This document shows, one piece after another, positions 29,423-63,873 of a DNA stretch of 64,000 nucleotides. A program made the position numbers and the translations under genes. The notes under the pieces were generated by a model. That model was not told where the DNA came from, ran no database searches, and worked only from the letters and a program-made list of their open reading frames with translations. Position 1 is the stretch's first letter. Each line of letters starts with the position of its first letter. This DNA is from an uncultured Bacilli bacterium (GTDB taxonomy: Bacteria; Bacillota_I; Bacilli_A; RF39; UBA660), in assembly GCA_947625505.1 (NCBI GenBank), contig CANQON010000004.1, positions 23,498-87,497 on the forward strand, written 5' to 3'.

Positions 29423-29595
29423 CTAACAAAAAAGACTATAATTAGGAGCGCAATAGCGCGGTACCATCCTACTATAGTCTTAATTAATATAACGAGTTTC
29501 CCCGGAAATGTTTACATTTCTCTCCAAAGTAGATTCATAAAGTTATTATTATTCATTTCCACCAACCATGAACTCTCTATTAATAATTTCTTTAT
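29423..29595 (-). promoter_or_regulatory. T-box riboswitch leader, serine specifier (UCU)
   Basis: Minus strand shows AGAGAG/GGTTGGTGGAAA stem I elements, specifier loop GAA-UCU-A (codon at 29533-29531), T-box AGTAGGATGGTACCGCG, and the terminator GACTATAGTAGGA..GCGC-TATT-GCGCTCCTAATTATAGTC followed by TTTTTT. Confidence 0.85.
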
Positions 29596-29637
29596 TACTA
29601 TTCTTTATCATCGATTTCTATATGTATTTTAACTTAT

Positions 29638-50698: not shown

Positions 50699-53600
50699 TT
50701 ATGCCGTCTTCTTTCTTAATTTACGAAATACGAAGATTGAAATAACTAGTCCAACAAGACATGTTACAAAAAGCATGATATATTTTATAGAATTATCTAA
50801 AGTTAATGGACTTTTTATAACTTCATTAGTAATAGTTACTGTAATATCATTGTTAACTACACCTTTATTATTTTCATATGTTGTATTATAACCATTCTTA
50901 TTAGCGTCTATTTCAATTATTTCATATTGGGTATTATATGGTAAATTAATAGTTATTTTTTGATTATTTTTTAAAGTAATATTACCTATATAAGTATCAT
51001 TTTCATCTTTTGTAAACTTGATTATTCCATCTTCAATATTAGTACCTTTATAAGCTATATTTTCTTCTAAAGGTACATCAGGATTTTCAACTAAACGAAT
51101 TTCAAAACTAAATTCTTGATCTGTTTTAGTTTCTCCTTTAACTATTTTTTCAATAGTTAAATCATAATAAGAATACTTTTTATTATAGAATTCAATAGTT
51201 GGATTTTCACCTGTTAAAGTACCTTCTAAATTACCTTTAGTTGTTGTTTTATAATCATCTTGATTTGCTTCTACTTCTTCTAATTTATATTGAACACCAT
51301 TAGGTAAATCTTTTATTGTTATAGTTTCTTTATCTTTAATTTTAATTGTTCCTTCATATTTATTTTCACTATTAGTTAAAGATAAAATACCTTTTGTTCC
51401 ATCTTCATTAATAGTTTGATAAGATGTATTTAATGTTTGATTACTTGGCGCAACTAAAGTTACTTTAATAGTCCATTCTTTATCAGTTTCACCTAAGTCA
51501 CCACTTACAAACTTCTTAATAATTAAATCATTTTGTAATACTTGTAATTTACCATTATTACCTTGATACATATTTATAACAATATTATTACCATCATTAA
51601 ATCCTGTTGTTGATTCACTAATAGAAGGTAATATATAAGATGAAGAGGTCTTAGTATTATTAGTTTCTTTAGTAACTAGTTCATCTTGCATATTACCAGC
51701 AATTAAACCACCTGGTTTAGTAGCTATAACCCAATCCGTATGTGTATCTTCTGGTTTAGTTGTACTAAAGTTTTTCCAAATATTAGCTGATGGACTATAC
51801 CAACATAGATATTCGCCAAAGCTAATATTTTGTCCACTAATACCTGTTCCAAACTCTTTTCCTTGTCTTAAAAGCGCTACATGACATATTTCTTCTTCAT
51901 TAGGCATATAATAATCTATTACAATGTAATAATATTTATTAGAATTTTCATTATCAACCTTATTTACCGTTTTATGATTTTTAATAAATGTTTTATAACT
52001 AGCATCATCAAGAATTATTTCCTTCTCTTGCTTATCTTCCGCAGTTGCTTCATATAGTATCAATGGTGTATTAGATGTAAAGTATTGATTGTCTGAACTT
52101 GGTGAGAATGATATAGTAGCATCACCATGTGTACTATTATTTATTTGTTTATTTGAAAAATAATTAGCATAGAATGAAATATATTTTTTAGAGTCAACTT
52201 CTTCGGTATTTTGAGCAATATATTCTTTAGAAACTTTAGATAAATTAATTGACCCATCAGCATTTTTTATAGCGCTATCTATTCCAACCGTATAATAAAC
52301 GCGTAATGGCGTTGCTTCCTCATATTTATCTAAGTTATCACTATAAGATATAACTTTATTATTTTCATCAATTTGTATTTCAGCAACTTCTAAAGGCAAA
52401 GCATTTCTTGGAATATTAATATATAATGTTTCATCATATGTATCATAACTACTAGTCTTTGAGTTACTATCTTCTTTACTTTCAACATACATTAAAATAC
52501 TACTTAAATTAAATGTAACATTATAGTTAGTATTACCATTTACATCTTCCATTTTATATGAAAGATTATTTTGAACATCACCATCTTGTGAAACAATTTT
52601 ATAATATTGTCTTGTATAATTATATTTTTCAGGTTTAACATCATATTCAGTAACACTGTTATCAGCATTAACAACACAATATTTTAATTTATCTTTAACA
52701 ACATTGTAGAACTTACCAAATAGGGAAACATTTTTAATTTCTTTAACTTCCATGTATTTGCCAATTGGATCTATATATGTTAAATAATCTTTAATACCTA
52801 TATCATTAACACCTGAAATTGGTTTTAAAACTTGTTCAGTTATTGTAATAAGCATATTCTTAAATACATTTGTTAATTGATCAGTATCTGTTTCCATATA
52901 TTGGTCAATATAATATACATCTTCAACTGATGTTACATCGTATTTGGCAGCATCACCTGTTGGATGATTAAATGTCCAATTAGCTTTTATTTGTTTATCT
53001 GCCCACTTATAATTACCAAATGAAAAAGTTGGAGTATTTCCTTTTAAATATTCTTCAAATGCATTGTAAGACGTTTTTAAATATTCATTATCAACATCGG
53101 CTGTAAAATATTTACGTGGATCCATTGTTGCCCTTAATTGAAACTGTGAATATTCAGATTGCGTATATACATTTAAACCAATTCCAAAGCCATACATAGA
53201 TACATCTGAACCATCAATACTATTTTTAGTATAATTATCTTCTACCCAATTTTTCATATAGCCTGCTGTTAACAAAACACTTAAAGTTCTAGGAGGCATG
53301 GTATAAACTGTTTCTTCATCTAAATGAAAATAAATTGGATTACCATTAGCTTCAGCTATATAATTTTTATAAGTATTTCCTTTTTGTTCAACAGGTAATA
53401 TAGCTTTACCATCACTACTATCTGTCCAACTTAGTGGATTCCAGAAATCAATACGTGATTTTTCATCATATTTAGCTGTACTTGTAGCACCAACAACGTT
53501 AGTTCCACCATCTGTTAAAGTAATTAAAATTGGTGTACGATTCATAGTTATATTAGTTACTGGATTGGTATATGTAGTATTTTTTTCTGTAGCAAGTAAA

Positions 53601-54376
53601 TACATTCCTTGATATAAAGCTCCTTGTAAATATGTTGAATCAGCAAACATTGGATCACTTGTTTTATTTTTTATTTTATCAGTTTCTTTAACATGAGTTG
53701 TTACTTTTGGCCATAATTTATCTCGCCCACTTACTCTATCAAGGGTTAAATAATCTTCTTGACCTTCTTCTAATTCATAATGACTTAATGGCAATAATAC
53801 TTGAGTTCCACCAGCATATACGATAATTCCTACACGGTTATTGGGATGAACATACTCAATATCATCATTATCTCCCATTAAGGTTTTAATTAAAAAGTTA
53901 GCTGATTTAATTGCTTCCGCATCAGCATAATGATCTGACATAGAGGTAGAAACATCAATTAATAAAACAACATCTAGAGGAACACTTTCTAGTCTAGATA
54001 CTCTTTTACTACTACCTAAAGCAGAATAAACATGTAAGAAATCGCTATCGTTTGTAATGGTACCAGATACACCATCTGTTTCTCTATCTAAAGTTAAAGT
54101 TGATGATGAAAGAACAGTCTTATCTGACCAAATCTTACCAGCATTTTTAGATCCTGTCTTATCATTGATAAGATAGTCTTTATAACTATCCATCGTATTA
54201 TTATCTACAATATAACTTATGTTATTATTACCTAATTCACCTGCTACATAATCGCCACTTAACTTTTTATTACTCTTACTTATATTAGCATGTTTAATAG
54301 CTAGTGGCGTTATTAATGAGCAAATGACAAGTGATAAACTAATAACTAAGGCAAGTAATTTATATTTTATCTTCAT
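50699..54376 (-). CDS. large surface adhesin-like protein: signal peptide, vWA domain, C-terminal Cna-B/SpaA-like repeats, sorting-like signal
   Basis: MKIKYKLLALVISLSLVICSL signal (start 54376). MIDAS DVVLLIDVSTSMSD. Two repeats (KKFVSGDLGETDKEWTIKVTL...YKLEEVEA..DYKTT and EKIVKGETKTDQEFSFEIRL...YEIIEIDA..GYNTT). Tail is SPLTLDN, then a TM helix, then RKLRKKTA. Confidence 0.8.
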   Translation of the reverse strand: MKIKYKLLALVISLSLVICSLITPLAIKHANISKSNKKLSGDYVAGELGNNNISYIVDNNTMDSYKDYLINDKTGSKNAGKIWSDKTVLSSSTLTLDRETDGVSGTITNDSDFLHVYSALGSSKRVSRLESVPLDVVLLIDVSTSMSDHYADAEAIKSANFLIKTLMGDNDDIEYVHPNNRVGIIVYAGGTQVLLPLSHYELEEGQEDYLTLDRVSGRDKLWPKVTTHVKETDKIKNKTSDPMFADSTYLQGALYQGMYLLATEKNTTYTNPVTNITMNRTPILITLTDGGTNVVGATSTAKYDEKSRIDFWNPLSWTDSSDGKAILPVEQKGNTYKNYIAEANGNPIYFHLDEETVYTMPPRTLSVLLTAGYMKNWVEDNYTKNSIDGSDVSMYGFGIGLNVYTQSEYSQFQLRATMDPRKYFTADVDNEYLKTSYNAFEEYLKGNTPTFSFGNYKWADKQIKANWTFNHPTGDAAKYDVTSVEDVYYIDQYMETDTDQLTNVFKNMLITITEQVLKPISGVNDIGIKDYLTYIDPIGKYMEVKEIKNVSLFGKFYNVVKDKLKYCVVNADNSVTEYDVKPEKYNYTRQYYKIVSQDGDVQNNLSYKMEDVNGNTNYNVTFNLSSILMYVESKEDSNSKTSSYDTYDETLYINIPRNALPLEVAEIQIDENNKVISYSDNLDKYEEATPLRVYYTVGIDSAIKNADGSINLSKVSKEYIAQNTEEVDSKKYISFYANYFSNKQINNSTHGDATISFSPSSDNQYFTSNTPLILYEATAEDKQEKEIILDDASYKTFIKNHKTVNKVDNENSNKYYYIVIDYYMPNEEEICHVALLRQGKEFGTGISGQNISFGEYLCWYSPSANIWKNFSTTKPEDTHTDWVIATKPGGLIAGNMQDELVTKETNNTKTSSSYILPSISESTTGFNDGNNIVINMYQGNNGKLQVLQNDLIIKKFVSGDLGETDKEWTIKVTLVAPSNQTLNTSYQTINEDGTKGILSLTNSENKYEGTIKIKDKETITIKDLPNGVQYKLEEVEANQDDYKTTTKGNLEGTLTGENPTIEFYNKKYSYYDLTIEKIVKGETKTDQEFSFEIRLVENPDVPLEENIAYKGTNIEDGIIKFTKDENDTYIGNITLKNNQKITINLPYNTQYEIIEIDANKNGYNTTYENNKGVVNNDITVTITNEVIKSPLTLDNSIKYIMLFVTCLVGLVISIFVFRKLRKKTA

Positions 54377-54407
54377 ATTCAAAATTCCTTTCACATAATG
54401 AGTATAA

Positions 54408-54518
54408 ATGTCTAAATTATGTCCCATAACAAATTTCTTTAACTATTAATGATAGAAGTAATAATAATTATTAAAGAAATATAGTGTATCTTTAGTGAAT
54501 AGAACACAATTTAGACAT
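54408..54518. repeat. nested inverted repeats in the adhesin 5' leader
   Basis: Outer 11-bp inverted repeat ATGTCTAAATT (54408-54418) / AATTTAGACAT (54508-54518). Inner 10-bp inverted repeat ATTTCTTTAA (54433-54442) / TTAAAGAAAT (54471-54480). A further 8-bp hairpin at 54528-54555. Confidence 0.8.
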
Positions 54519-54628: not shown

Positions 54629-56548
54629 TTAGATAATATCATCAAGCCAAATGCTAACATCGGCATCACTTGGCATACGAAGATCTCCTCTAGGAGATAA
54701 ACTAATTGTTCCTACTTTAGGTCCATCAGGCATACAACTTCTTTTAAATTGTTGACTAAAGAATCTCTTTAAAAAGAATGTTAACCATTTTTTAATTGTT
54801 TCTGCATCATACATATCTTTAAATGTTTTCGTAGCTATTAAATAAATTTTACTAAGTGTAGCGCCATATCTTAAGAAATGATATAAGAAGAAGTCATGAA
54901 GAATATATGGACCTACACTGTTTTCCGTTTTTTGACGAATATTTCCTTTTTTATCAGGAGGTAATAATTCAGGACTAATTGGTGTATCTAAAATATCATA
55001 AATAGTATCTTTGATATCTTCATGTGTATCAGCTATCCATTTAACTAAATATCTTACTAAGGTTTTAGGTATAGATGTATTAACAGCATACATACTCATA
55101 TGATCACCATTATAAGTACACCAACCAAGTGCTAACTCTGATAAATCACCTGTACCAATAACTAATCCTCCTTCTTTATTAGCTATATCCATTAATATTT
55201 GTGTTCTTTCTCTTGCTTGACTATTTTCATAGGTAATATCGTAATTATTTGGATCTTGTCCTATATCTTCAAAATGTTTTAAACATGATTCTTTAATATT
55301 TATTTCTTTTAAAGTAGCTCCCATATTATTTATTAAGTTAAGAGCATTCTGATAAGTTCTACTTGTTGTACCAAAGCCTGGCATTGTTACGGCAATAATA
55401 TTATCATTGGAAATATCTAATTTCTTATAAGCTTCTTTAATAACTAAAAGAGCTAAAGTAGAGTCTAATCCTCCTGATATACCAATAACTGTTTTTTTAA
55501 TACCTGTATGTTTTAATCTTTTGGCTAAGCCACATGCTTGAATATTAAATATTTCATAACAACGATTATTTCTTATTTCTTCATTACTAGGTACAAAAGG
55601 ATATGGTGTATATTCTCTTAATAAGTTATCATTAGTATCTTTAATATCAATATTTATCTTACGATATTTTAAAGTAGGTTTAATCCCCATATAACTAATA
55701 TCTTTATAACGATTATTCATTAACTTATTAATATCAATATCGGTTATAATCATATTACTATTAAAATCAAATCTTTCACTTTCTTTAATAATGGTTCCAT
55801 TCTCAGCTATAATGCTATGGCCTGAAAAGACCACATCAGTAGTTGATTCATTAACACCTGATGATGCATAAATATAAGCACTTATCGTTTTAGCAGATTG
55901 CATTCTAACTAAGTTTTGACGATATTCATATTTACCTATTATTTCATTACTAGCTGATAAATTAAAAATCATACTAGCACCATTTAAAGCATGTTCATTA
56001 CTAGGAGGATTAACACTCCATAAGTCTTCACATAATTCAACGCCAAAACAAATACTTTTATTTTCTTTATCCTGAAATAAGATATTAATACCAAAAGGTA
56101 CTTCTTCATCTAAAATATTAACTGTCTCACTAATAGCATTCGTACTAGAAGCAAACCAACGCTTTTCATAAAATTCACTATAATTAGGTATATATGTTTT
56201 AGGTATCATACCTAGTATTTTACCTTTATTAATAACTACTCCTACATTAAATAATTGATTATCTAAAGATATAGGCATACCAATAATAGCTATTATATTT
56301 AATTTAGATGTTTCTTTTAATATTAATTCTAATCCTTTTAAAGATTCATCAAGTAAAACATCTTGATGAAATAAATCATTACATGTATATCCTGTTAAAG
56401 ATAGTTCTGGTAAAGTTACGATTTGTACTCCCTTATTATTTGCTTCTTTAATTAACTTAATTATTTCTTTAACATTAAAAGATACATTACCTACTTTAAG
56501 ATTAGGTGTAATAGCTCCTACTCTTACATATCCACATTTCTTTAACAT
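54629..56548 (-). CDS. nadE: glutamine-dependent NAD+ synthetase
   Basis: N-terminal nitrilase domain (LPELSLTGY, GVELCEDLW) and a C-terminal synthetase with the SGGLDS PP-loop. 639 aa. Confidence 0.9.
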   Translation of the reverse strand: MLKKCGYVRVGAITPNLKVGNVSFNVKEIIKLIKEANNKGVQIVTLPELSLTGYTCNDLFHQDVLLDESLKGLELILKETSKLNIIAIIGMPISLDNQLFNVGVVINKGKILGMIPKTYIPNYSEFYEKRWFASSTNAISETVNILDEEVPFGINILFQDKENKSICFGVELCEDLWSVNPPSNEHALNGASMIFNLSASNEIIGKYEYRQNLVRMQSAKTISAYIYASSGVNESTTDVVFSGHSIIAENGTIIKESERFDFNSNMIITDIDINKLMNNRYKDISYMGIKPTLKYRKINIDIKDTNDNLLREYTPYPFVPSNEEIRNNRCYEIFNIQACGLAKRLKHTGIKKTVIGISGGLDSTLALLVIKEAYKKLDISNDNIIAVTMPGFGTTSRTYQNALNLINNMGATLKEINIKESCLKHFEDIGQDPNNYDITYENSQARERTQILMDIANKEGGLVIGTGDLSELALGWCTYNGDHMSMYAVNTSIPKTLVRYLVKWIADTHEDIKDTIYDILDTPISPELLPPDKKGNIRQKTENSVGPYILHDFFLYHFLRYGATLSKIYLIATKTFKDMYDAETIKKWLTFFLKRFFSQQFKRSCMPDGPKVGTISLSPRGDLRMPSDADVSIWLDDII

Positions 56549-56550
56549 AT

Positions 56551-57144
56551 TTATCTCCTTTTTATATATTCTTTAACTCTTTCAATAAGTAATTTACTAT
56601 TAAAACTTTTAAAATAGCCTAAAGCATTAAGTTCTAATACTTCATCATAAGTACACTTAAAAGGTTTTATTATTTCATCTTGATCTAAATGTTGACTAGT
56701 AACTTGTTCACAATCGTAAGCTAAAAATAAACTATTTAAAGCACTAGAACAACCTTCATCTTGATAAGCTTCATCAAGTAAAATCATTTTACCTGCTTGA
56801 TAACCATGTTCTTCTTTTAATTCACGGCGTGCTCCTACTTCTTTATCTTCTCCAAGTTCAATATATCCTGCTGGAAAACCTAGTTGTACTCCCTCTTTTG
56901 TAAATACCCTTGGTTCAACATTTAATAATACTTCATTATTTTTTGTTAAAGCAAATATTATCGCAGCACTTCCATCCTTTTTACCTTTAAGTAATTTTTC
57001 TCTTAAAAAAATACTACCACATTTTAAATGAATTTCATAAACTTCACTCGATATAAATCTGGGATCTATATCTTTTTTTATTCTTGTTACAACTTGTAAT
57101 TCTTTTAAATAACTATTTAGTTCTTCTAACTTTTCTCTACGCAT
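56551..57144 (-). CDS. NUDIX hydrolase (probable ADP-ribose pyrophosphatase)
   Basis: Intact Nudix box GYIELGEDKEVGARRELKEEHGY. Overlaps the pncB end by 8 nt. Confidence 0.75.
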   Translation of the reverse strand: MRREKLEELNSYLKELQVVTRIKKDIDPRFISSEVYEIHLKCGSIFLREKLLKGKKDGSAAIIFALTKNNEVLLNVEPRVFTKEGVQLGFPAGYIELGEDKEVGARRELKEEHGYQAGKMILLDEAYQDEGCSSALNSLFLAYDCEQVTSQHLDQDEIIKPFKCTYDEVLELNALGYFKSFNSKLLIERVKEYIKRR

Positions 57145-58720
57145 GATATTGTCCTATCTTTTTTTGTTTTTCTCTTACTTCATCAGTATGTTCTTTAATC
57201 ATTTGTTTTTTAAGCGCTAATAACTTTTCACTTAAGTCAACATAGTATTCATGAGGGTTTATAGCGAACTTAATTTCTGGATATAAAGTAGCAAATTCAT
57301 GATCACAATATTCTTTACTTTCTAAAGTACTAGGTACTTCATATACTTGTTTACCATTTAAGAAAATAGGTACTTGTAATTCACGGACATGGTAATCAGT
57401 GATATCTTTTCTTTTCCATTCTTCCGTTGGTGATACTAAAGTATAACCATTAGTTGGAATAACTTCATCAGCAAGGGCAACTACATCACCTAATGCATAA
57501 CCTGTCTTTACATCATAAAAGCGATATACTTTTTTATAACCTGGATTAGTTATTTTTACTTCTGAGTCACTTAGTTTAATTCTTGGAACTGCTTTACCAT
57601 TTTCTAAAACAGCTACTAATTTATATACACCATTCATACGTCCTATAGGAGCTATCGCATTATCACCTGCTCCTAAATTATCAATAGGTGCTCCCTCTCT
57701 TTTTAACTTTTCTATTTCTTTTTCTGTTAAACCATTCGTAACAAATATTTTAGTATCTGTCATTCCTGCTTCATCTAACATTCTTCGACTTTCTTTAGAT
57801 AAATATACTAAGTCACCACTATCAATTCTAATACCTTTAAAAGGATACCCATGAGGTATTAAATAATCTTTAGCTACTTTAATAGCAGCAGGTATACCAC
57901 TATATAAAGTATTATAAGTATCAACAAGCGCTATAAAATTATAAGGATTAGATTTAGCATACGCTAAAAAAGCATCATAATCATTACCATAAAATTCAAT
58001 AATAGAATGTGCCATAGTTCCAGAAGGAATTAAATCATATTCTTGGGCAGCTAAAACATTAGATGTACTACTAAATCCTCCAATAGCTGCATGTCTTGAT
58101 CCTTGAGTAACAGATACACCATGACCTCTTCTAGCTCCAAAGTCCGCAATGCTCATAGGGAAAGCTGCATTAGCCATTCTTTTCGTCGCAGTAGCAATTA
58201 AGCTACCATGATTGAAATAAGCTAACATAAGTGTTTCTAATAATTGGGCTTCAATAATATTAGCTTTTACAGTAATAACAGGTTCATTAGGGAATATTGG
58301 TGTACCATCAGGAACAGCCCAAATATCACCTGTAAATTTTAAATTTTTTAAATAAGCTAAGAACTCTTCTGTAAACTTACCTGTACTTCTTAAATAGTCA
58401 ATATCTCCATTAGTAAAATGAAGATTACGAACATAATCAATTATTTCTTTTAAACCAGAACTAATAGTGTATCCACTGCCAAATTCATGACTACGAAAGA
58501 AAACATCAAAGTAAGCTTTTGTATCCTTATCTTTTGTATCAAAAAATGTCTGAGACATGGTAAATTCATAAAAATCAACTAACATTGTTAAATTAGGCTT
58601 TTGATTTTTTAAAATAGCTTGTTTTAAATCTTCCCATGTTTTAACACTATCATCTTCTAATTCAATCATTTTTTTGACATCTTCAACACTCATAAAATCC
58701 ATTGCTTTATTTTTTTCCAT
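57137..58720 (-). CDS. pncB: nicotinate phosphoribosyltransferase
   Basis: DFYEFTMSQ, the FGARRGHG region and GIRIDSGDL motifs. Start at the ATG at 58720, behind an AGGAGTG RBS that overlaps the pncA stop. Confidence 0.9.
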   Translation of the reverse strand: MEKNKAMDFMSVEDVKKMIELEDDSVKTWEDLKQAILKNQKPNLTMLVDFYEFTMSQTFFDTKDKDTKAYFDVFFRSHEFGSGYTISSGLKEIIDYVRNLHFTNGDIDYLRSTGKFTEEFLAYLKNLKFTGDIWAVPDGTPIFPNEPVITVKANIIEAQLLETLMLAYFNHGSLIATATKRMANAAFPMSIADFGARRGHGVSVTQGSRHAAIGGFSSTSNVLAAQEYDLIPSGTMAHSIIEFYGNDYDAFLAYAKSNPYNFIALVDTYNTLYSGIPAAIKVAKDYLIPHGYPFKGIRIDSGDLVYLSKESRRMLDEAGMTDTKIFVTNGLTEKEIEKLKREGAPIDNLGAGDNAIAPIGRMNGVYKLVAVLENGKAVPRIKLSDSEVKITNPGYKKVYRFYDVKTGYALGDVVALADEVIPTNGYTLVSPTEEWKRKDITDYHVRELQVPIFLNGKQVYEVPSTLESKEYCDHEFATLYPEIKFAINPHEYYVDLSEKLLALKKQMIKEHTDEVREKQKKIGQYHA

Positions 58721-58731
58721 CTTTAACACTC

Positions 58732-59391
58732 CTATCTTTTAACCTTTTGATATCCTAAAACATTAATACCTGCTTGATTCATAAATTTAAAAGCCATATC
58801 ATTCCATTCTTGGCGATCATGTATTCCTTCTTCTATTAGTCTTCCCTCTTGATCATATAAATTAGGTTTAATTTGATATGTTTCAACAGCTTCTGTTGGT
58901 ACTATTACTTCAATATCAATATTTAATTCATCACATAATTTTTTTAAAGGAATAGCTAAATCCATAACACATATATCTGTACAACATCCTACAATTTTAA
59001 TTCTCTTTAATTTAGGATTTGTTAAAGCCTTTTTGATAAAAGGTAAGAAAGTATTTGTCTGTCCTGCCCAAATGGTACTAGTAGAATTTTTTTCAAATTC
59101 ATAACAATAAGGTAGTAAATCTCTTAATTCATCAATTAAGCTAGATTCCCATGAATCTTTTAGGCAATGTTCAGGATGTACTTTAAATTCCATAGCGCCC
59201 TTTTCATGAGCATCACGAATTACTACAACATTCTTACTTAAATTTTGAATAGCTTCTTCCATATAATTTCTTATAGTTGGTACAATGTGCATAATGTAAG
59301 GATCAGCCATAACTCCTCCTTTCATAAATCCATTAATCATATCAACAACAATAATCATTTCTTCTGTTTCATTTATATTTTTCTTTTGCAT
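58732..59391 (-). CDS. pncA: isochorismatase-family cysteine hydrolase, probable nicotinamidase
   Basis: IVVDMINGF (Asp), PEHCLKDSWES, and VGCCTDICVMD (Cys). Operon position upstream of pncB. Confidence 0.7.
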   Translation of the reverse strand: MQKKNINETEEMIIVVDMINGFMKGGVMADPYIMHIVPTIRNYMEEAIQNLSKNVVVIRDAHEKGAMEFKVHPEHCLKDSWESSLIDELRDLLPYCYEFEKNSTSTIWAGQTNTFLPFIKKALTNPKLKRIKIVGCCTDICVMDLAIPLKKLCDELNIDIEVIVPTEAVETYQIKPNLYDQEGRLIEEGIHDRQEWNDMAFKFMNQAGINVLGYQKVKR

Positions 59392-59561: not shown

Positions 59562-60068
59562 TTATTTAGAAGATCCCACTAAATAGAATTCGATATCATT
59601 AGTCACGAAACCCATTTTAATTGGACAATTAAACATTAAATTACGTGTTTCATCATTAATTAATATTTGTTGATTACCTGTTCCTAATCCTTGTTTAATA
59701 GTTACTAAATGCGAACCATAATATAACTGAAAAGTTCTCTGTTCTCCATTAGGTACAGTACCTAATAAATAATTATCAACATATACATCATAAGGTATTA
59801 AACATCCTACAAAATTATTAGGTCTAATAATTGTTAAAGTTCCAACTCCTGGAGGATTATTAAATCCTGGATTCATCATTGGTTGCCCTACTGGTTGATT
59901 TACCATCTGCTGCTGGGGTACTTGTTGATTAAATACTTGTTGTTGAGGCATCATCTGTTGACCTGGCACTTGCCCATTTACCATAGGTTGTCCTGTTAAA
60001 GGTGCTCCACAAGTTGAACATGTTGTAGCCCCTACTGAATTATTATTTCCACACATTGAACAAATCAT
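59562..60068 (-). CDS. zinc-ribbon protein with Gln/Pro-rich linker and C-terminal beta-rich domain
   Basis: CSMCG...CSTCG ribbon, a QQ/PQ low-complexity linker, and an unassigned C-terminal domain. Confidence 0.5.
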   Translation of the reverse strand: MICSMCGNNNSVGATTCSTCGAPLTGQPMVNGQVPGQQMMPQQQVFNQQVPQQQMVNQPVGQPMMNPGFNNPPGVGTLTIIRPNNFVGCLIPYDVYVDNYLLGTVPNGEQRTFQLYYGSHLVTIKQGLGTGNQQILINDETRNLMFNCPIKMGFVTNDIEFYLVGSSK

Positions 60069-60071
60069 TTC

Positions 60072-61547
60072 TTACACTCCCTTTTTATCATACTTATTAT
60101 AAAAATATTCAATTAATGGTTTAGCACTTATTTCATCAATACCCATATTATGTAGTACTTCACGGGATATATATACTCCTCCATTAACATATATATTTTT
60201 GATTAAATAATTTGTTATTTCTTTAATTTTTCCATTACGTAATATTTCATCAATATTACCTAAATCTCTTTCAATACATTTGATAAATATTCCATCATAG
60301 ATATTACCTAATAAATAAGATGGAAAATATCCAAATGATCCTTCAGACCAATGAACATCTTGCATAACACCCATACTATCATTTGAAACATCTAAACCTA
60401 AATATTCTTTCATTTTTTGATTCCATGCTTTAGGTAAATCATCAACAGCTAAATTATTATTAAAAATATCTCTTTCAATTTCATAACGAATAATAATATG
60501 TAAGCAATATGTAAGTTCATCAGCTTCTGTTCTTATATATCCTTTATGAACATTATTTAGTTGTTTAACAAAGTCATCAAAAGATAAATCTAAATGTAAA
60601 AGTTTTTTTACTTCATCATAAATAGGTATCCAAAAGTTAGGATTACGTCCTAAAATATTTTCATAAAATCGTGATTGGCTTTCGTGTAATCCATATAGGC
60701 CATCAATACAAGCATTTCTTAAATGACTAATGGTTGGATTTATATTTTGTTCAAATATACCATGGCCTCCTTCATGAATAATAGTAGAGACAAAGTCACA
60801 AGGTTTATTACCATGTTTAAAGGCAATACGAACATCATTATAACTCATTTTTTCTGTATAGCCATGAGGATATATACCTAAAGCTCCCTTATTCATATCA
60901 AAGCCAATATAATTTAATAAATATTTAGCTGTATCTAATAATTCACTACTAGATGATTCTTTAGTATATGGTTTAATACTATCTTGATATTGATTAACTA
61001 AAGGTATTAAAGCATCTTTAATCTCTTTAAATAATTTATCTATAACTTTACTTGTCATTCCTTCTTCATACTCATTTAACATACTATCATATAAATCCAT
61101 ATCAGGATATTTATAAGTATAATACTCTTTAGTCATATCAATAATTTTCTTTAAGTATGGTTTAAACATATTATAGTCATTATTCTCTTTAGCTGTTTCC
61201 CATATTGTATTAACTGTACTACATGTTTTAGCATATTCTTCATAGAAAGCACCAGGTACTTTTTTATTTATTTCATATTTATGTAATAATTCTTTAAGAT
61301 ATCGTTTTTCTAATTCGCTTATTTGATTAAATTCTTTACTATTAATAGCGTCTTTTAATAATTCTTCATACTTAGATGATGTTTCCATTTCAAAGATTTT
61401 TAATTCAACATCAGTTTTAACTTCTATTAAATATTCTTTAGTATCTAAAGGTGCATTAACTCGTAAATCCCAACTAAGTAAATTAGCTATATATTGTTCT
61501 TTAGCGATATCTTCTAAATATTTATATAACATTTCAATCTTATTCAT
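60072..61547 (-). CDS. carboxypeptidase M32 (Taq-type)
   Basis: HEGGHG zinc motif, HESQSRFYEN and DVHWS motifs. Confidence 0.9.
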   Translation of the reverse strand: MNKIEMLYKYLEDIAKEQYIANLLSWDLRVNAPLDTKEYLIEVKTDVELKIFEMETSSKYEELLKDAINSKEFNQISELEKRYLKELLHKYEINKKVPGAFYEEYAKTCSTVNTIWETAKENNDYNMFKPYLKKIIDMTKEYYTYKYPDMDLYDSMLNEYEEGMTSKVIDKLFKEIKDALIPLVNQYQDSIKPYTKESSSSELLDTAKYLLNYIGFDMNKGALGIYPHGYTEKMSYNDVRIAFKHGNKPCDFVSTIIHEGGHGIFEQNINPTISHLRNACIDGLYGLHESQSRFYENILGRNPNFWIPIYDEVKKLLHLDLSFDDFVKQLNNVHKGYIRTEADELTYCLHIIIRYEIERDIFNNNLAVDDLPKAWNQKMKEYLGLDVSNDSMGVMQDVHWSEGSFGYFPSYLLGNIYDGIFIKCIERDLGNIDEILRNGKIKEITNYLIKNIYVNGGVYISREVLHNMGIDEISAKPLIEYFYNKYDKKGV

Positions 61548-61598
61548 ATCTCACCTATTTCTACTATTCATTATAACATAAAAAAAGAAAGACTTTCA

Positions 61599-63239
61599 TT
61601 AATTATCTTTCCTTTTACATTTTTCTTTAACAGGTTCTGTTTTTTTATACTTATCATATTCTTCAATACGACTATTAGCAATTTCTTCATCAAATCCACT
61701 ACGATATCTCTTTTGAAGTTTTTCAATATTTTTATTAATTACATCTGTAAAAGACATACCTAAAACATGATTCGCTACAGCAGCTAAATGAATAAGGATT
61801 AAACTAGCATTTTGTAATACTACTTCTTTACTATCAGAACTGATTATTTGACAAGCATATAAAGGTAATTGTTTCCAATCTTTACTTATATCATAACTAG
61901 GTAACTTATTATCTAATATTGATAAAGGTATACCTGGATGAATTTTATGGCATAAAGGATCTTTTTCTTTAGCGCAAGCACCTAATACATCACTATCAAT
62001 CATCTTATGCATTTTCTTATCTGTTAGATAAGAAGCAATATCTGCAAAATTATATTGATAAAAAGTCGCTAAAGAAGCTGCTAAATACCAAGTAATATCT
62101 CCTAATTCATATACGATATTTTCTCTTAATTGTTTCTTTTTATCATCGTTTAAAGAGTGTGTTTCATACTTTTTAAAGATATCGATTAGTTCTCCTATTT
62201 CACCTATTAATCCCATTTCGCCATTAAGACGAACATGTTCACTATCTTCAAAATTATTCATCGTTCTAAGAGCATGATGTTGATAATCTTCAAAGGTTAT
62301 ACTATGATGAATCATCGCTACCATCTTTTGTCCTAAACATCCTCCTTTACATAATGTAAAGTTATGACATGTTTGACATTCAGATGAAGCTGTATCACGT
62401 AAAGAACGTACTTTTTGAAAATATTGAGAATCATAAATAGCTTTTAAACTTATATAATGAGCATTACCTGCTAAACCCATGTAATCAAAATATTTCATGG
62501 CATCACAAGGATATACATTACCATCAAAACCAACTATCATATTTTCACTAGCCGCATTACAATCGGTATGCGTAATACCTAAAATATTCCATGGACTACC
62601 TAATCTAATCTTATCAGGATATAAAGTATATTGTTCTTTTAAATAACTTTTTAAGTCTTCTAATTCTTCATTATTAAGTAATAATGATTCATCTCCTCTA
62701 CCATGAGGTATATATCTTAAGACACTAAAAGATGTTGTTGCTTCACTAGGTAATTCTAAAAACATTTTTAAAGCAGGATCTAAATCTTTTAATGTTTGAT
62801 TAGTTATAACATGATGAATACCTAGTTTTAAATTAGTATGTTCTAATACTTGAGGTAAGAATCTTTTTAATTCATCTAAAGTAATAACATTATTTCTAGT
62901 TAAAGCTACACTAGTAGAATATATTATTTCATCTAATCCTAATTTATTTAACTCATCTAATAAAGTAATTGTCTCTTCATTAGGATTACACATCGTATAC
63001 ATTTTAACATAATATCCTAGTTCTTTAGCTCTTTTAATAACATTACCTATACCAGGATAAAGAGTTGCTTCTCCTCCTGTAAAAACAACACTATTAGCAC
63101 CTAATTCACGAGCTTCCATTAATAATATATAAATAAAATTTTCATCTAAATTACGATATTCTTTTATTTTAGCATCACTAGAACAATGAATACACATACG
63201 ATAACAATTTTGTGTTACTTCTATTTTTATCTCTTTCAT
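61599..63239 (-). CDS. radical SAM / SPASM-domain enzyme fused to a C-terminal MazG-like NTP pyrophosphohydrolase domain
   Basis: CYRMCIHC (CxxxCxxC), FTGGEATL, and SPASM Cys pattern CNAAS..GNVYPCD...CQTCHNFTLCKGGCLG. Then LIGEIGELIDIFKK...ELGDITWYLA...VINKNIEKLQKRY (MazG-type). Start at the ATG at 63239, behind an AGGGGGAG RBS. Confidence 0.75.
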   Translation of the reverse strand: MKEIKIEVTQNCYRMCIHCSSDAKIKEYRNLDENFIYILLMEARELGANSVVFTGGEATLYPGIGNVIKRAKELGYYVKMYTMCNPNEETITLLDELNKLGLDEIIYSTSVALTRNNVITLDELKRFLPQVLEHTNLKLGIHHVITNQTLKDLDPALKMFLELPSEATTSFSVLRYIPHGRGDESLLLNNEELEDLKSYLKEQYTLYPDKIRLGSPWNILGITHTDCNAASENMIVGFDGNVYPCDAMKYFDYMGLAGNAHYISLKAIYDSQYFQKVRSLRDTASSECQTCHNFTLCKGGCLGQKMVAMIHHSITFEDYQHHALRTMNNFEDSEHVRLNGEMGLIGEIGELIDIFKKYETHSLNDDKKKQLRENIVYELGDITWYLAASLATFYQYNFADIASYLTDKKMHKMIDSDVLGACAKEKDPLCHKIHPGIPLSILDNKLPSYDISKDWKQLPLYACQIISSDSKEVVLQNASLILIHLAAVANHVLGMSFTDVINKNIEKLQKRYRSGFDEEIANSRIEEYDKYKKTEPVKEKCKRKDN

Positions 63240-63333
63240 AACTCCCCCTAAAACATTTTTATTGTAACACATCCTAGATAAAAGTTCCACTATTTTTAAG
63301 GGTATGATATAATGTGTTAGAAAGAAGGTTATC

Positions 63334-63873
63334 ATGATAGATATTATTATTATCATTTTTTATACTATTTTATGTTTTATCTTACCAACAATAATTTTAT
63401 TTAAACAAAAGAAATGTGAAAACAATCATAATTTAATTAATAGCGCTAAATTCTTAGGTATGACTTTAATCTTTATCTTGTTATGCTTTTTAGCGCAATA
63501 TATCTTTGATTATAATAGTTATACTATTAAAGAATGTGGTTCTTTATGTATTGAAAGAACCAATCATCCTATATTTCTTTTACTAGGTCTTACTATTCAA
63601 TTAATTAGCACTACTATATATTATTTAATGTATAAAAAGCTTTTACTTAAAACAAGTAACTTTATAAGATATATATATCCTATTATCTATTTTAGTATTA
63701 CAACTTTTTTCTTTGTATTTAGTAGTTTAATATATATATCCTTTTTTGGTCCTTTTGTTATTAAAAATATCTTTTTAAATATTTATCGTTATTTAGTCTT
63801 TTTATTTCAAGTATTAATCTATCCTCTTGATACGTATTTATATTTATTAAAAAAGAAGTTTAAGAAAAATTAA
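63334..63873 (+). CDS. hypothetical polytopic membrane protein
   Basis: 179 aa with 4-5 TM helices, an AGAAGG RBS and a TGATATAAT extended -10 upstream. Confidence 0.5.
   Translation: MIDIIIIIFYTILCFILPTIILFKQKKCENNHNLINSAKFLGMTLIFILLCFLAQYIFDYNSYTIKECGSLCIERTNHPIFLLLGLTIQLISTTIYYLMYKKLLLKTSNFIRYIYPIIYFSITTFFFVFSSLIYISFFGPFVIKNIFLNIYRYLVFLFQVLIYPLDTYLYLLKKKFKKN

Follow-up and report, generated by a model that had tools for sequence, protein, structure and literature searches.

A predicted radical SAM/SPASM enzyme interlocked with a MazG domain in uncultured Bacilli that most likely acts on a nucleotide rather than a peptide

We analysed a gene in a 64,000-nucleotide stretch of DNA, hereafter the window, from an uncultured Bacilli bacterium (GenBank assembly GCA_947625505.1, contig CANQON010000004.1). 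The gene is an intact open reading frame (ORF) of 546 codons plus stop on the minus strand (61599..63239), and its predicted product unites a radical SAM core, a SPASM domain and a MazG-type pyrophosphohydrolase domain in a single polypeptide. Comparison with fused and unfused relatives indicates that the two enzymatic halves are interlocked and not joined end to end, an arrangement of SPASM and MazG that is new here. The protein most likely alters a nucleotide rather than a peptide, since its relatives adjoin genes for DNA or nucleotide modification, and with a confidence that falls a little short of even we favour the reading that it is a bifunctional enzyme acting on a free, probably pyrimidine, nucleotide or deoxynucleotide.

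An original prediction, made from the sequence alone, had proposed the combination of radical SAM, SPASM and MazG, and all three scored above curated thresholds in our searches (PF04055, PF13186/TIGR04085 and PF03819, respectively); the motifs it quoted (CYRMCIHC, GGE and the MazG helices, including ELGDITWY and NIEKLQKRY) are found where it had placed them. The radical SAM core comprises residues 1-215 (62595..63239; all coordinates within the gene refer to the minus strand). It was assigned by the Pfam model Radical_SAM PF04055, which matched residues 6-105 with 39.2 bits (cut-off 29.5), and by the beta/alpha pattern of a partial TIM barrel in the AlphaFold2 (AF2) model; for the full-length protein this model reached a predicted local distance difference test score (pLDDT) of 89.9 and a predicted template modelling score (pTM) of 0.83. 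The cluster-binding motif CX3CX2C (C12, C16 and C19) lies in CYRMCIHC at residues 12-19 (63183-63206) and is followed by TGGE at residues 54-57 (63069-63080). CX3CX2C is the motif that ligates the SAM-binding [4Fe-4S] cluster in the radical SAM superfamily, and GGE is a SAM-binding motif. Among 52 homologues C12, C16, C19, G55, G56 and E57 are invariant, as is the whole of T54-G55-G56-E57, and CX3CX2C is present in 92 of the 94 full-length fused members.

The first part of the SPASM domain covers residues 216-311 (62307..62594). Pfam SPASM PF13186 matched residues 227-292 (38.5 bits, cut-off 21.5), the NCBIfam SPASM domain model TIGR04085 scored 42.9 bits against a cut-off of 27, and the cysteines follow the pattern C227-X12-G-X4-C245 (CX17C, 227-245) and then CX2CX5CX3C at 288-301 (C288, C291, C297 and C301), being invariant among the 52 homologues. 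The complete seven-cysteine SPASM motif, CX9-15GX4C...CX2CX5CX3C...C, is obtained when C430 is taken as its last member; this residue closes an invariant DPxC motif, here DPLC at residues 427-430 (61950-61961). A full SPASM cysteine pattern in the N-terminal two thirds of the protein, as originally described, is therefore present only if C430 is counted, and C430 itself lies inside the MazG region. Because the SPASM domain has seven cysteines, the enzyme most likely carries two auxiliary Fe-S clusters, and from its place in the motif we infer that C430 is a ligand of one of them.

The MazG domain falls into two segments, an N-terminal one with helices 1-3 (residues 312-403; 62031..62306) and a C-terminal one (residues 485-546; 61602..61787), which is followed directly by the stop codon (61599-61601). 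The former was delimited by PF03819, by phrog_229, by a profile hidden Markov model (HMM) that was built from 53 ordinary short MazG proteins (the short-MazG HMM) and by conservation, and the latter by positions 79-120 of the short-MazG HMM. Profile searches confirmed the MazG-like character of the C-terminal region: PF03819 matched residues 344-408 and a second stretch with 28.5-31.9 bits (cut-off 22) and recognized 17 of 17 diverse C-terminal domains of the family (best E 1e-10), PHROG 229, 'MazG-like pyrophosphatase', matched with an E of 6.6e-19, and the short-MazG HMM matched the fused protein with an E of 1.6e-27. The isolated C-terminal domain was modelled by AF2 with a pLDDT of 87.6, and a Foldseek search of BFVD with this model ranked MazG proteins of phages first, that of Bacillus phage PBC1 leading with an E of 1.1e-5 and TM 0.54/0.67, while a 'dUTP diphosphatase' of PhiW-14 came lower among the matches. 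The sequence assignment is solid.

The residues expected of a working MazG domain are also conserved. The acidic motif GEIGELIDIFKK occupies residues 346-357 and ELGDITWY residues 378-385; across the 52 homologues E347, D353 and D381 never vary and E350 and E378 are retained in 90% or more, while GExGExxD and ExGDxxWY occur in 89 and 91 of the 94 full-length fused proteins, respectively. The helix NIEKLQKRY (residues 504-512; 61704-61730) contains the invariant N504 and L508 and is followed by the likewise invariant G515; behind it the basic C-terminal tail is modelled with low confidence (pLDDT <50 for residues 541-546). When the domain sequence was compared with the PDB, weak matches to RS21-C6/DCTPP1 alone were found (E ~1), and in these the acidic positions of the fusion align with GEVGEL and EELSD, whose acidic residues we take to be the Mg2+ ligands of RS21-C6. 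The MazG part is thus predicted to be a phage-type 'long' all-alpha NTP pyrophosphohydrolase domain with conserved metal-binding acidic residues, and is probably active.

The way in which the halves are combined distinguishes the fusion from both of its parent families. Unfused relatives terminate with the invariant DPxC after the CX2CX5CX3C block, and the alignment shows DPxC to be invariant across fused and unfused proteins alike. In the unfused relatives the sixth and seventh SPASM cysteines are 18-24 residues (120 proteins) or 24-53 residues (18 proteins) apart, and in anSME they are ~18 residues apart. Each of the 94 full-length fused proteins, by contrast, has a spacing of 129-140 residues here, and a further 101-138 residues follow DPxC. 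The short-MazG HMM, in turn, aligns in two pieces, residues 313-403 with HMM positions 3-96 and residues 485-526 with positions 79-120. The DPxC spacing and the two-piece alignment together show that the halves are interlocked: MazG helices 1-3 are situated between the sixth and seventh SPASM cysteines, and C430 in an insert of ~80 residues inside the MazG domain (residues 404-484; 61788..62030). The borders of this insert follow from the alignment of fused with unfused proteins and from the spacing, and the segment is deleted in MazG-only derivatives; proteins that have lost the radical SAM/SPASM part (P0246, P0247, P0250 and P0245) have lost the DPxC segment as well. The interlocked order is retained by all 94 full-length members down to 37% identity. 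The original prediction, which placed MazG-type helices in the last ~220 residues, had missed that MazG is spliced into the SPASM domain.

The fusion is no viperin, belongs to none of the named SPASM equivalog families and is not a maturase of ribosomally made, post-translationally modified peptides (RiPPs). With the SPASM enzymes anSME, PqqE, SuiB, SkfB and BlsE, which are its top Foldseek matches (E 1e-11 to 1e-8 over ~330 residues), it shares the CX3CX2C core and the seven-cysteine motif; unlike them, it has neither a RiPP recognition element (RRE) nor a peptide partner, and it carries the 129-140-residue stretch with MazG before the seventh cysteine. None of the named NCBIfam equivalogs, among them the tungsten-cofactor maturase, PqqE, MftC, AhbD, MoaA, anSME and NirJ, came near its cut-off (25-56 bits against 131-725), and identity with any of these was rejected. 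Common ground with MazG proteins (PHROG 229; DCTPP1/RS21-C6) lies in the EXXE...EXXD-type motifs and the terminal NxxKLxxRY helix; their MazG domain is free-standing, whereas that of the fusion is split by the insert with the SPASM cysteine and embedded in a radical SAM enzyme. In keeping with the original statement that no characterised family has such a fusion, the equivalog models were unmatched and the literature searched, whose coverage is incomplete, contained no paper joining radical SAM, SPASM and MazG.

Two further groups of radical SAM enzymes act, or are proposed to act, on nucleotides. Viperins, including the prokaryotic pVips, resemble the fusion in being radical SAM enzymes proposed to act on a nucleoside triphosphate, and the original prediction had drawn a loose parallel to them. 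As an analogy this stands, whereas membership failed: the PADLOC pVip matches were weak (35 and 29.5 bits) and confined to the generic core, Foldseek gave an E of ~6e-8, and the viperin model NF038283 was absent from the best 25 NCBIfam matches. To our knowledge viperins have one cluster with a specific C-terminal extension and neither auxiliary clusters nor MazG, and their assignment was rejected given that the fusion resembles them in the generic core only and possesses the seven-cysteine SPASM domain and MazG; its genomic setting is also one of housekeeping genes and not of a defence island. MoaA (GTP 3',8-cyclase) shows weak HMM and fold similarity to the fusion (37 bits against a cut-off of 325). 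It combines radical SAM with an auxiliary cluster and acts on an NTP whose triphosphate later leaves as pyrophosphate; it differs in having one auxiliary cluster, not two, and in that pyrophosphate is released by MoaC, a separate and unrelated enzyme.

The fused family is real but narrow. A protein search returned ~100 full-length fused clusters at 37-67% identity, and a scan of species-representative genomes 34 fused loci, all in metagenome-assembled genomes (MAGs) of uncultured Bacilli, 'Tenericutes' or Mollicutes; a few of these bins are labelled Muribaculaceae, a label that is probably wrong. Among 1.84 billion representatives at 50% identity only six full-length fused clusters were present. 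The neighbourhoods proved to be neither defence islands nor RiPP clusters, the two settings that the original prediction had set against each other. Across 35 fused neighbourhoods we found no conserved neighbour gene, and specifically no conserved protease, transporter or precursor gene; in other genomes the neighbours are YigZ/Impact_N, UvrC, NusB, XseA, a HerA-like ATPase, Tad pilus genes or thioredoxin, and synteny is conserved among close relatives only. In the window the fusion gene is followed downstream, on the same strand, by genes for an M32 carboxypeptidase, a zinc-ribbon protein and an NAD-salvage cluster, and base composition around it is uniform and native. These housekeeping neighbours, the lack of a conserved partner and the native composition mark it as a chromosomal gene that stands alone and has apparently been inherited vertically. 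A phage origin was considered and rejected: a search of IMG/VR yielded no relatives, and the single weak match to a phage is limited to residues 6-76, within the generic radical SAM core.

Features typical of peptide-modifying systems were likewise missing. Pfam detected no RRE/PqqD domain in the protein, whose radical SAM motif starts at residue 12. The flanks of the gene in the window hold no small ORF with a ribosome-binding site, as already stated in the original prediction, and the flanks of the other fused loci share no small ORF from one synteny group to another. For these reasons a RiPP maturase was rejected, there being no RRE, no precursor ORF and no conserved neighbours.

An indication of what the family may act on comes from its unfused relatives. 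In a neighbour-joining tree of the radical SAM/SPASM core, calculated without bootstrap, the fused proteins form one clade with the MazG-less proteins P0102-P0104 at its base. The sister clade (P0105-P0120) consists of proteins of ~334 aa with 38-40% identity to the fused ones, and the gene is followed, 3 nt further on, by one whose 310-aa product matches over its full length Pfam HMUDK_hel (E 9e-105), the helical domain of 5-hydroxymethyldeoxyuridine (5-hmdU) DNA kinase. The C-terminal domain of the fusion is not a relative of this partner, as BLASTP detected no significant similarity. Pairs of a 334-aa radical SAM/SPASM gene and a stand-alone HMUDK_hel gene were seen on human-gut contigs (L005 7035-10313, also L006-L010), and that of L005 is bordered by a 229-aa protein without Pfam match and a partial paralogue of that protein. 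Integrase, relaxase, WYL, NADAR and HD genes lie near the L005 pair.

More distant is an outgroup clade of 1120 proteins (E <= 1e-10) from Clostridia, Chloroflexota, Verrucomicrobiota, Zixibacteria and others. Its members occur in a cassette of three overlapping or adjacent genes that is conserved in very diverse phyla. The first gene is ThyA-like, with Nmad2 in its place at one locus; the second encodes the radical SAM/SPASM protein (~345 aa), and the third is for a family-4 UDG, usually fused to SocA/Panacea (L047 3104-6117; also L050 6289-9185, L051 6282-9186, L052 6357-8690 and L053 6264-9165). The ThyA-like protein matches TIGR03283 with an E of 7.6e-17 and is 29-44% identical between loci. 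The cassette of L052 adjoins two ThsB-type TIR genes and that of L050 a Shedu SduA_C gene and IS21. The cassette looks like an undescribed DNA- or nucleotide-modification or defence system, and our literature search returned no paper on the combination of ThyA-like, radical SAM/SPASM and UDG genes and none on Nmad2. What it shares with the fusion is the catalytic core alone, at 24-31% identity. In Armatimonadota (L049 5274-9020) a ThyA-like gene is followed by one for a 570-aa fusion of dTMP kinase and HMUDK_hel and then by the radical SAM/SPASM gene; this locus adjoins an HTH/ImmA-like pair and a tyrosine recombinase (integrase). Another MazG-less relative, of 332 aa and with a shortened cysteine block, CX2CX3C, lies at L046 3774-4772 within what appears, by eye from the translations, to be an rnf operon, between RnfC/RnfD-like and RnfE/RnfA-like genes.

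ThyA-like and 5-HMUDK-type partner domains are those of phage thymidine hypermodification (PMC8989533). Unfused relatives of the fusion are in operons with ThyA-like, Nmad2, UDG and HMUDK_hel genes, and MazG and dUTPase belong to the same repertoire of hypermodification and defence toolkits. The fused gene differs from these toolkits in having no such partners nearby: tblastn detected no UDG, ThyA-like, Nmad2 or HMUDK_hel gene, either within the window or in fused-locus flanks. In the pathway of phage M6, moreover, the radical SAM enzyme is spore-photoproduct-lyase-like and not a SPASM enzyme (PMC8989533).

Judged from the sequences, the union of MazG with a radical SAM domain also appears to have arisen on three or more separate occasions. 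In P0447 (459 aa) a short domain precedes a related radical SAM/SPASM core; in the PDB this domain matches best the MazG protein 1VMG (E 0.057), with an alignment that runs through the EXXE/EXXD motifs, and a MazG-like identity is probable, though weakly supported. P0263 (369 aa) couples a different, non-SPASM radical SAM domain, whose best NCBIfam match is the prokaryotic viperin model at a score below cut-off, to a canonical MazG domain (113.9 bits with the short-MazG HMM). Its gene (L055 8001-9110) is located in the early region of a prophage in which we also noted serine recombinase, repressor, DnaC-like loader, methyltransferase, terminase and portal genes. No full-length relatives of P0263 were found in INPHARED or IMG/VR; phage genomes match its MazG part only. 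In P0461 a C-terminal segment matches a portion of 'thymidylate synthase/pyrimidine hydroxymethylase' genes from phages, as well as one gene in Bacillus phage SP-10. As a separate observation, an H...HD motif can be recognized by eye in the ~450-aa C-terminal regions of P0363 and P0427, and P0465 and P0473 carry extra domains of 110-167 aa. These four look possibly nucleotide-related by eye only, with tentative readings of nucleoside-deoxyribosyltransferase-like and HD-like for the extra domains of P0473 and P0363, which had no PDB or phage match.

A nucleotide substrate, already suggested in the original prediction, thereby gains comparative support from three sides, namely the absence of RRE, precursor and conserved neighbour, the operons of the sister clades and the other MazG-radical SAM fusions; it is still something that we infer rather than observe. 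In the mechanism we propose, the MazG module would bind an Mg-(d)NTP, most likely a pyrimidine deoxynucleotide, and remove pyrophosphate, and the radical SAM/SPASM module would use a 5'-deoxyadenosyl radical to initiate hydrogen abstraction on the same nucleotide. The radical reaction would probably be oxidative, with the auxiliary clusters taking up the electron as a conduit. We prefer an order in which MazG acts first and the (d)NMP is the radical substrate, because the ThyA-like partners belong to a dNMP-acting family and because phage dCTPases and dUTPases feed such enzymes. This is the logic of T4, where the dCTPase/dUTPase gp56 feeds the thymidylate-synthase-like hydroxymethylase gp42. 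In the opposite order, which we favour less, the NTP would be modified first and then disarmed or activated by loss of pyrophosphate.

Several observations weigh against a bifunctional nucleotide enzyme. Among solved structures, the radical SAM/SPASM part comes nearest to the peptide and protein modifiers SuiB, PqqE, anSME and SkfB (Foldseek, E ~1e-11), and the nucleoside and nucleotide enzymes BlsE, viperin and MoaA, as well as DesII, rank below them. On the MazG side the fold evidence is good, though not overwhelming, as PDB searches with the C-terminal domain gave generic helical bundles only (Foldseek with the isolated model), the weak sequence matches mentioned above or, in the case of a profile search, nothing. 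Both halves, furthermore, are found alone in related lineages. The MazG-only proteins P0246, P0247 and P0250 (217-224 aa) have the DPxC segment deleted, P0245, from an Erysipelotrichales MAG, is a MazG protein with a decayed radical SAM N-terminus that has lost CX3CX2C, and a MazG-only gene at L054 1631-2296 has no radical SAM gene nearby; conversely, P0102-P0104 have no MazG, and P0102 stands alone in a housekeeping context. Neither activity, then, depends strictly on the other, although the two are linked. Tandem enzymes occur among the more remote relatives whose SPASM ending is similar, and in one of these, P0383, what looks like a PqqD-type N-terminal region is recognizable by eye only. 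Lastly, the substrate of the ancestral clade may have been DNA rather than a free nucleotide, since UDG and HMUDK_hel, the partners in the sister clades, are DNA-binding, base-flipping modules.

Beyond the single enzyme, we can envisage that the fusion is the free-nucleotide-directed member of an unrecognised, nucleotide-centred SPASM clade with interchangeable pyrimidine-recognition modules, making a new radical-derived nucleotide. MazG would serve this purpose for free (d)NTPs, UDG-Panacea or HMUDK_hel for DNA bases, and ThyA-like proteins or Nmad2 would act as partners. This wider proposal is possible, although we regard it as doubtful at present.

If the fusion acts on nucleotides, it could do so in defence. 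It might be a single-gene anti-phage system, in which infection would lead to a modified nucleotide that is toxic or chain-terminating, like the products of viperins, or to destruction of a (d)NTP pool, with MazG providing nucleotide binding and hydrolysis. The TIR genes, the Shedu gene with IS21 and the integrase, relaxase, WYL, NADAR and HD genes around the unfused relatives at L052, L050 and L005, respectively, speak for such a role, as do the weak pVip match and the presence of another radical SAM-MazG fusion in a prophage. Systems with thymidylate synthase, dNMP kinase, 5-hmdU kinase and NMAD have been validated experimentally as anti-phage and systems with MazG, MazG-C, dUTPase, aGPT-Pplase and UDG are predicted to be defensive, although a radical SAM component is not mentioned among these published nucleotide-modification defence systems (PMC13092281, 2026). 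The fused gene itself is never in an island, however; it shows conserved housekeeping synteny in several lineages and native composition, has no relative in IMG/VR and no phage match beyond the generic core, lacks a sensor or regulator domain and failed as a viperin, so that we consider a defence function unlikely. For these small-genome anaerobic Bacilli we are more inclined to think that the enzyme constitutively modifies or cleans the nucleotide pool than that it is a mobile defence module, because the gene is stand-alone, apparently vertically inherited and chromosomal.

The solitary occurrence of each half, together with the lineage that keeps MazG while radical SAM decays, invites the explanation that one chain carries two independent activities: MazG would be a house-cleaning enzyme, the radical SAM/SPASM part would act on an unrelated substrate such as a protein side chain (as anSME does), a cofactor or a small metabolite, and fusion would secure co-expression or stability. 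The peptide- and protein-modifying nature of the nearest solved structures fits this explanation, and anSME offers the example of an enzyme with no RRE and no adjacent peptide substrate. Against it stand the splicing of the domains, which no full-length member out of 94 replaces by an end-to-end order even at 37% identity, the repeated joining of MazG to radical SAM, and the fact that every sister clade is tied to nucleotide or DNA enzymes; we think it has a rather small chance of being correct.

Alternatively, the reaction might take place at the level of DNA, the radical SAM/SPASM part modifying or repairing a (possibly already modified) pyrimidine in DNA while MazG removes the free dNTP to guard against mis-incorporation. 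The family-4 UDG and HMUDK_hel partners of the sister clades, being base-flipping, would suit this, and radical SAM chemistry on a DNA base has a precedent in phage M6 gp53 and spore photoproduct lyase (PMC8989533). Against it, MazG binds free nucleotides, a DNA-binding module cannot be recognised in the fusion, and genes for UDG, ThyA-like or HMUDK_hel proteins are absent from the window and the fused-locus flanks, which makes action on DNA improbable. A RiPP or protein maturase with a distant substrate gene, in which MazG would be a nucleotide-sensing gate, is very improbable indeed: most characterised SPASM enzymes do modify peptides and the best NCBIfam and Foldseek similarities are to such enzymes, yet nothing else favours the gated maturase that was originally offered as an alternative, with every equivalog model far below cut-off and neither RRE, precursor ORF nor conserved protease, transporter or precursor genes in the 35 neighbourhoods.

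As for the gene itself, translation likely starts at the ATG at 63239. The longest possible ORF would start at 63356; we place the start at 63239 because the Shine-Dalgarno-like AGGGGGAG, read from the sequence, lies just 5' of this ATG (63242..63249, minus strand) and because all homologues begin at the same M(L)KE(I/V)KIE position. The representative of the cluster to which the window protein belongs, P0001, differs from it by two residues. The transcription signals that had been proposed for the gene fared less well than its coding sequence. The candidate extended -10 element TGTTACAAT named in the original prediction is present (63261..63269, minus strand), and a scan of 61300-63600 found 17 promoter-like sites against 18.5 +/- 5.3 expected by chance in this region of 26% GC, so that a promoter of its own is not distinguished from background. 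Nor did a terminator scan find a terminator-like site between the fusion gene and the next gene, which lies 51 bp downstream on the same strand. The scans lend no support to the promoter and terminator of the original prediction, and its monocistronic unit is at most a possibility. Upstream, a divergent gene on the plus strand (63334-63873) encodes a very hydrophobic protein of 179 aa without Pfam match; its start is 95 bp from that of the fusion gene, and for this reason the two may share a regulatory region.

The window as a whole (1-64000) has an overall GC content of 26%. Counting ORFs with 150 aa or more, 54 of 59 belong to the minus strand, and GC skew stays negative all across 52-64 kb; the window probably lies within one replichore with strong co-orientation of genes. 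The NAD-salvage cluster (54629-59391, minus strand) encodes a glutamine-dependent NAD synthase (NadE), a NUDIX hydrolase, NAPRTase and an isochorismatase-family protein of the nicotinamidase type, and the zinc-ribbon protein (59562-60068, minus strand) has 168 aa, with the ribbon at its N-terminus, a low-complexity stretch rich in Q, P and M, and a globular C-terminal part. Further along the same strand, a protein of 1242 aa with VWA, DUF7601 and DUF5979 domains (50699-54427) is probably a cell-surface adhesin or pilin-like protein, and a T-box leader (29441-29620, minus strand; 106 bits), in keeping with an organism of the Bacilli type, is the sole Rfam match in the window.

Radical SAM enzymes with a SPASM domain are commonly taken for maturases of peptides and proteins, and the fused family points instead to radical chemistry on nucleotides or DNA. 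Were the proposed nucleotide-centred clade to prove correct, the fusion would make either a new base or sugar modification of DNA or RNA or an antiviral nucleotide, and radical SAM chemistry on nucleotides would have arisen independently of viperin, MoaA and QueE. The fusion may also prove a convenient entry point for scientists interested in this chemistry: as a single polypeptide of 546 aa that needs no partner, it can be expressed, reconstituted and screened on panels of nucleotides. The question bears on what the validated nucleotide-modification anti-phage systems make, and on the modified nucleotides of uncultured gut Bacilli of the RF39- or Tenericutes-like kind.

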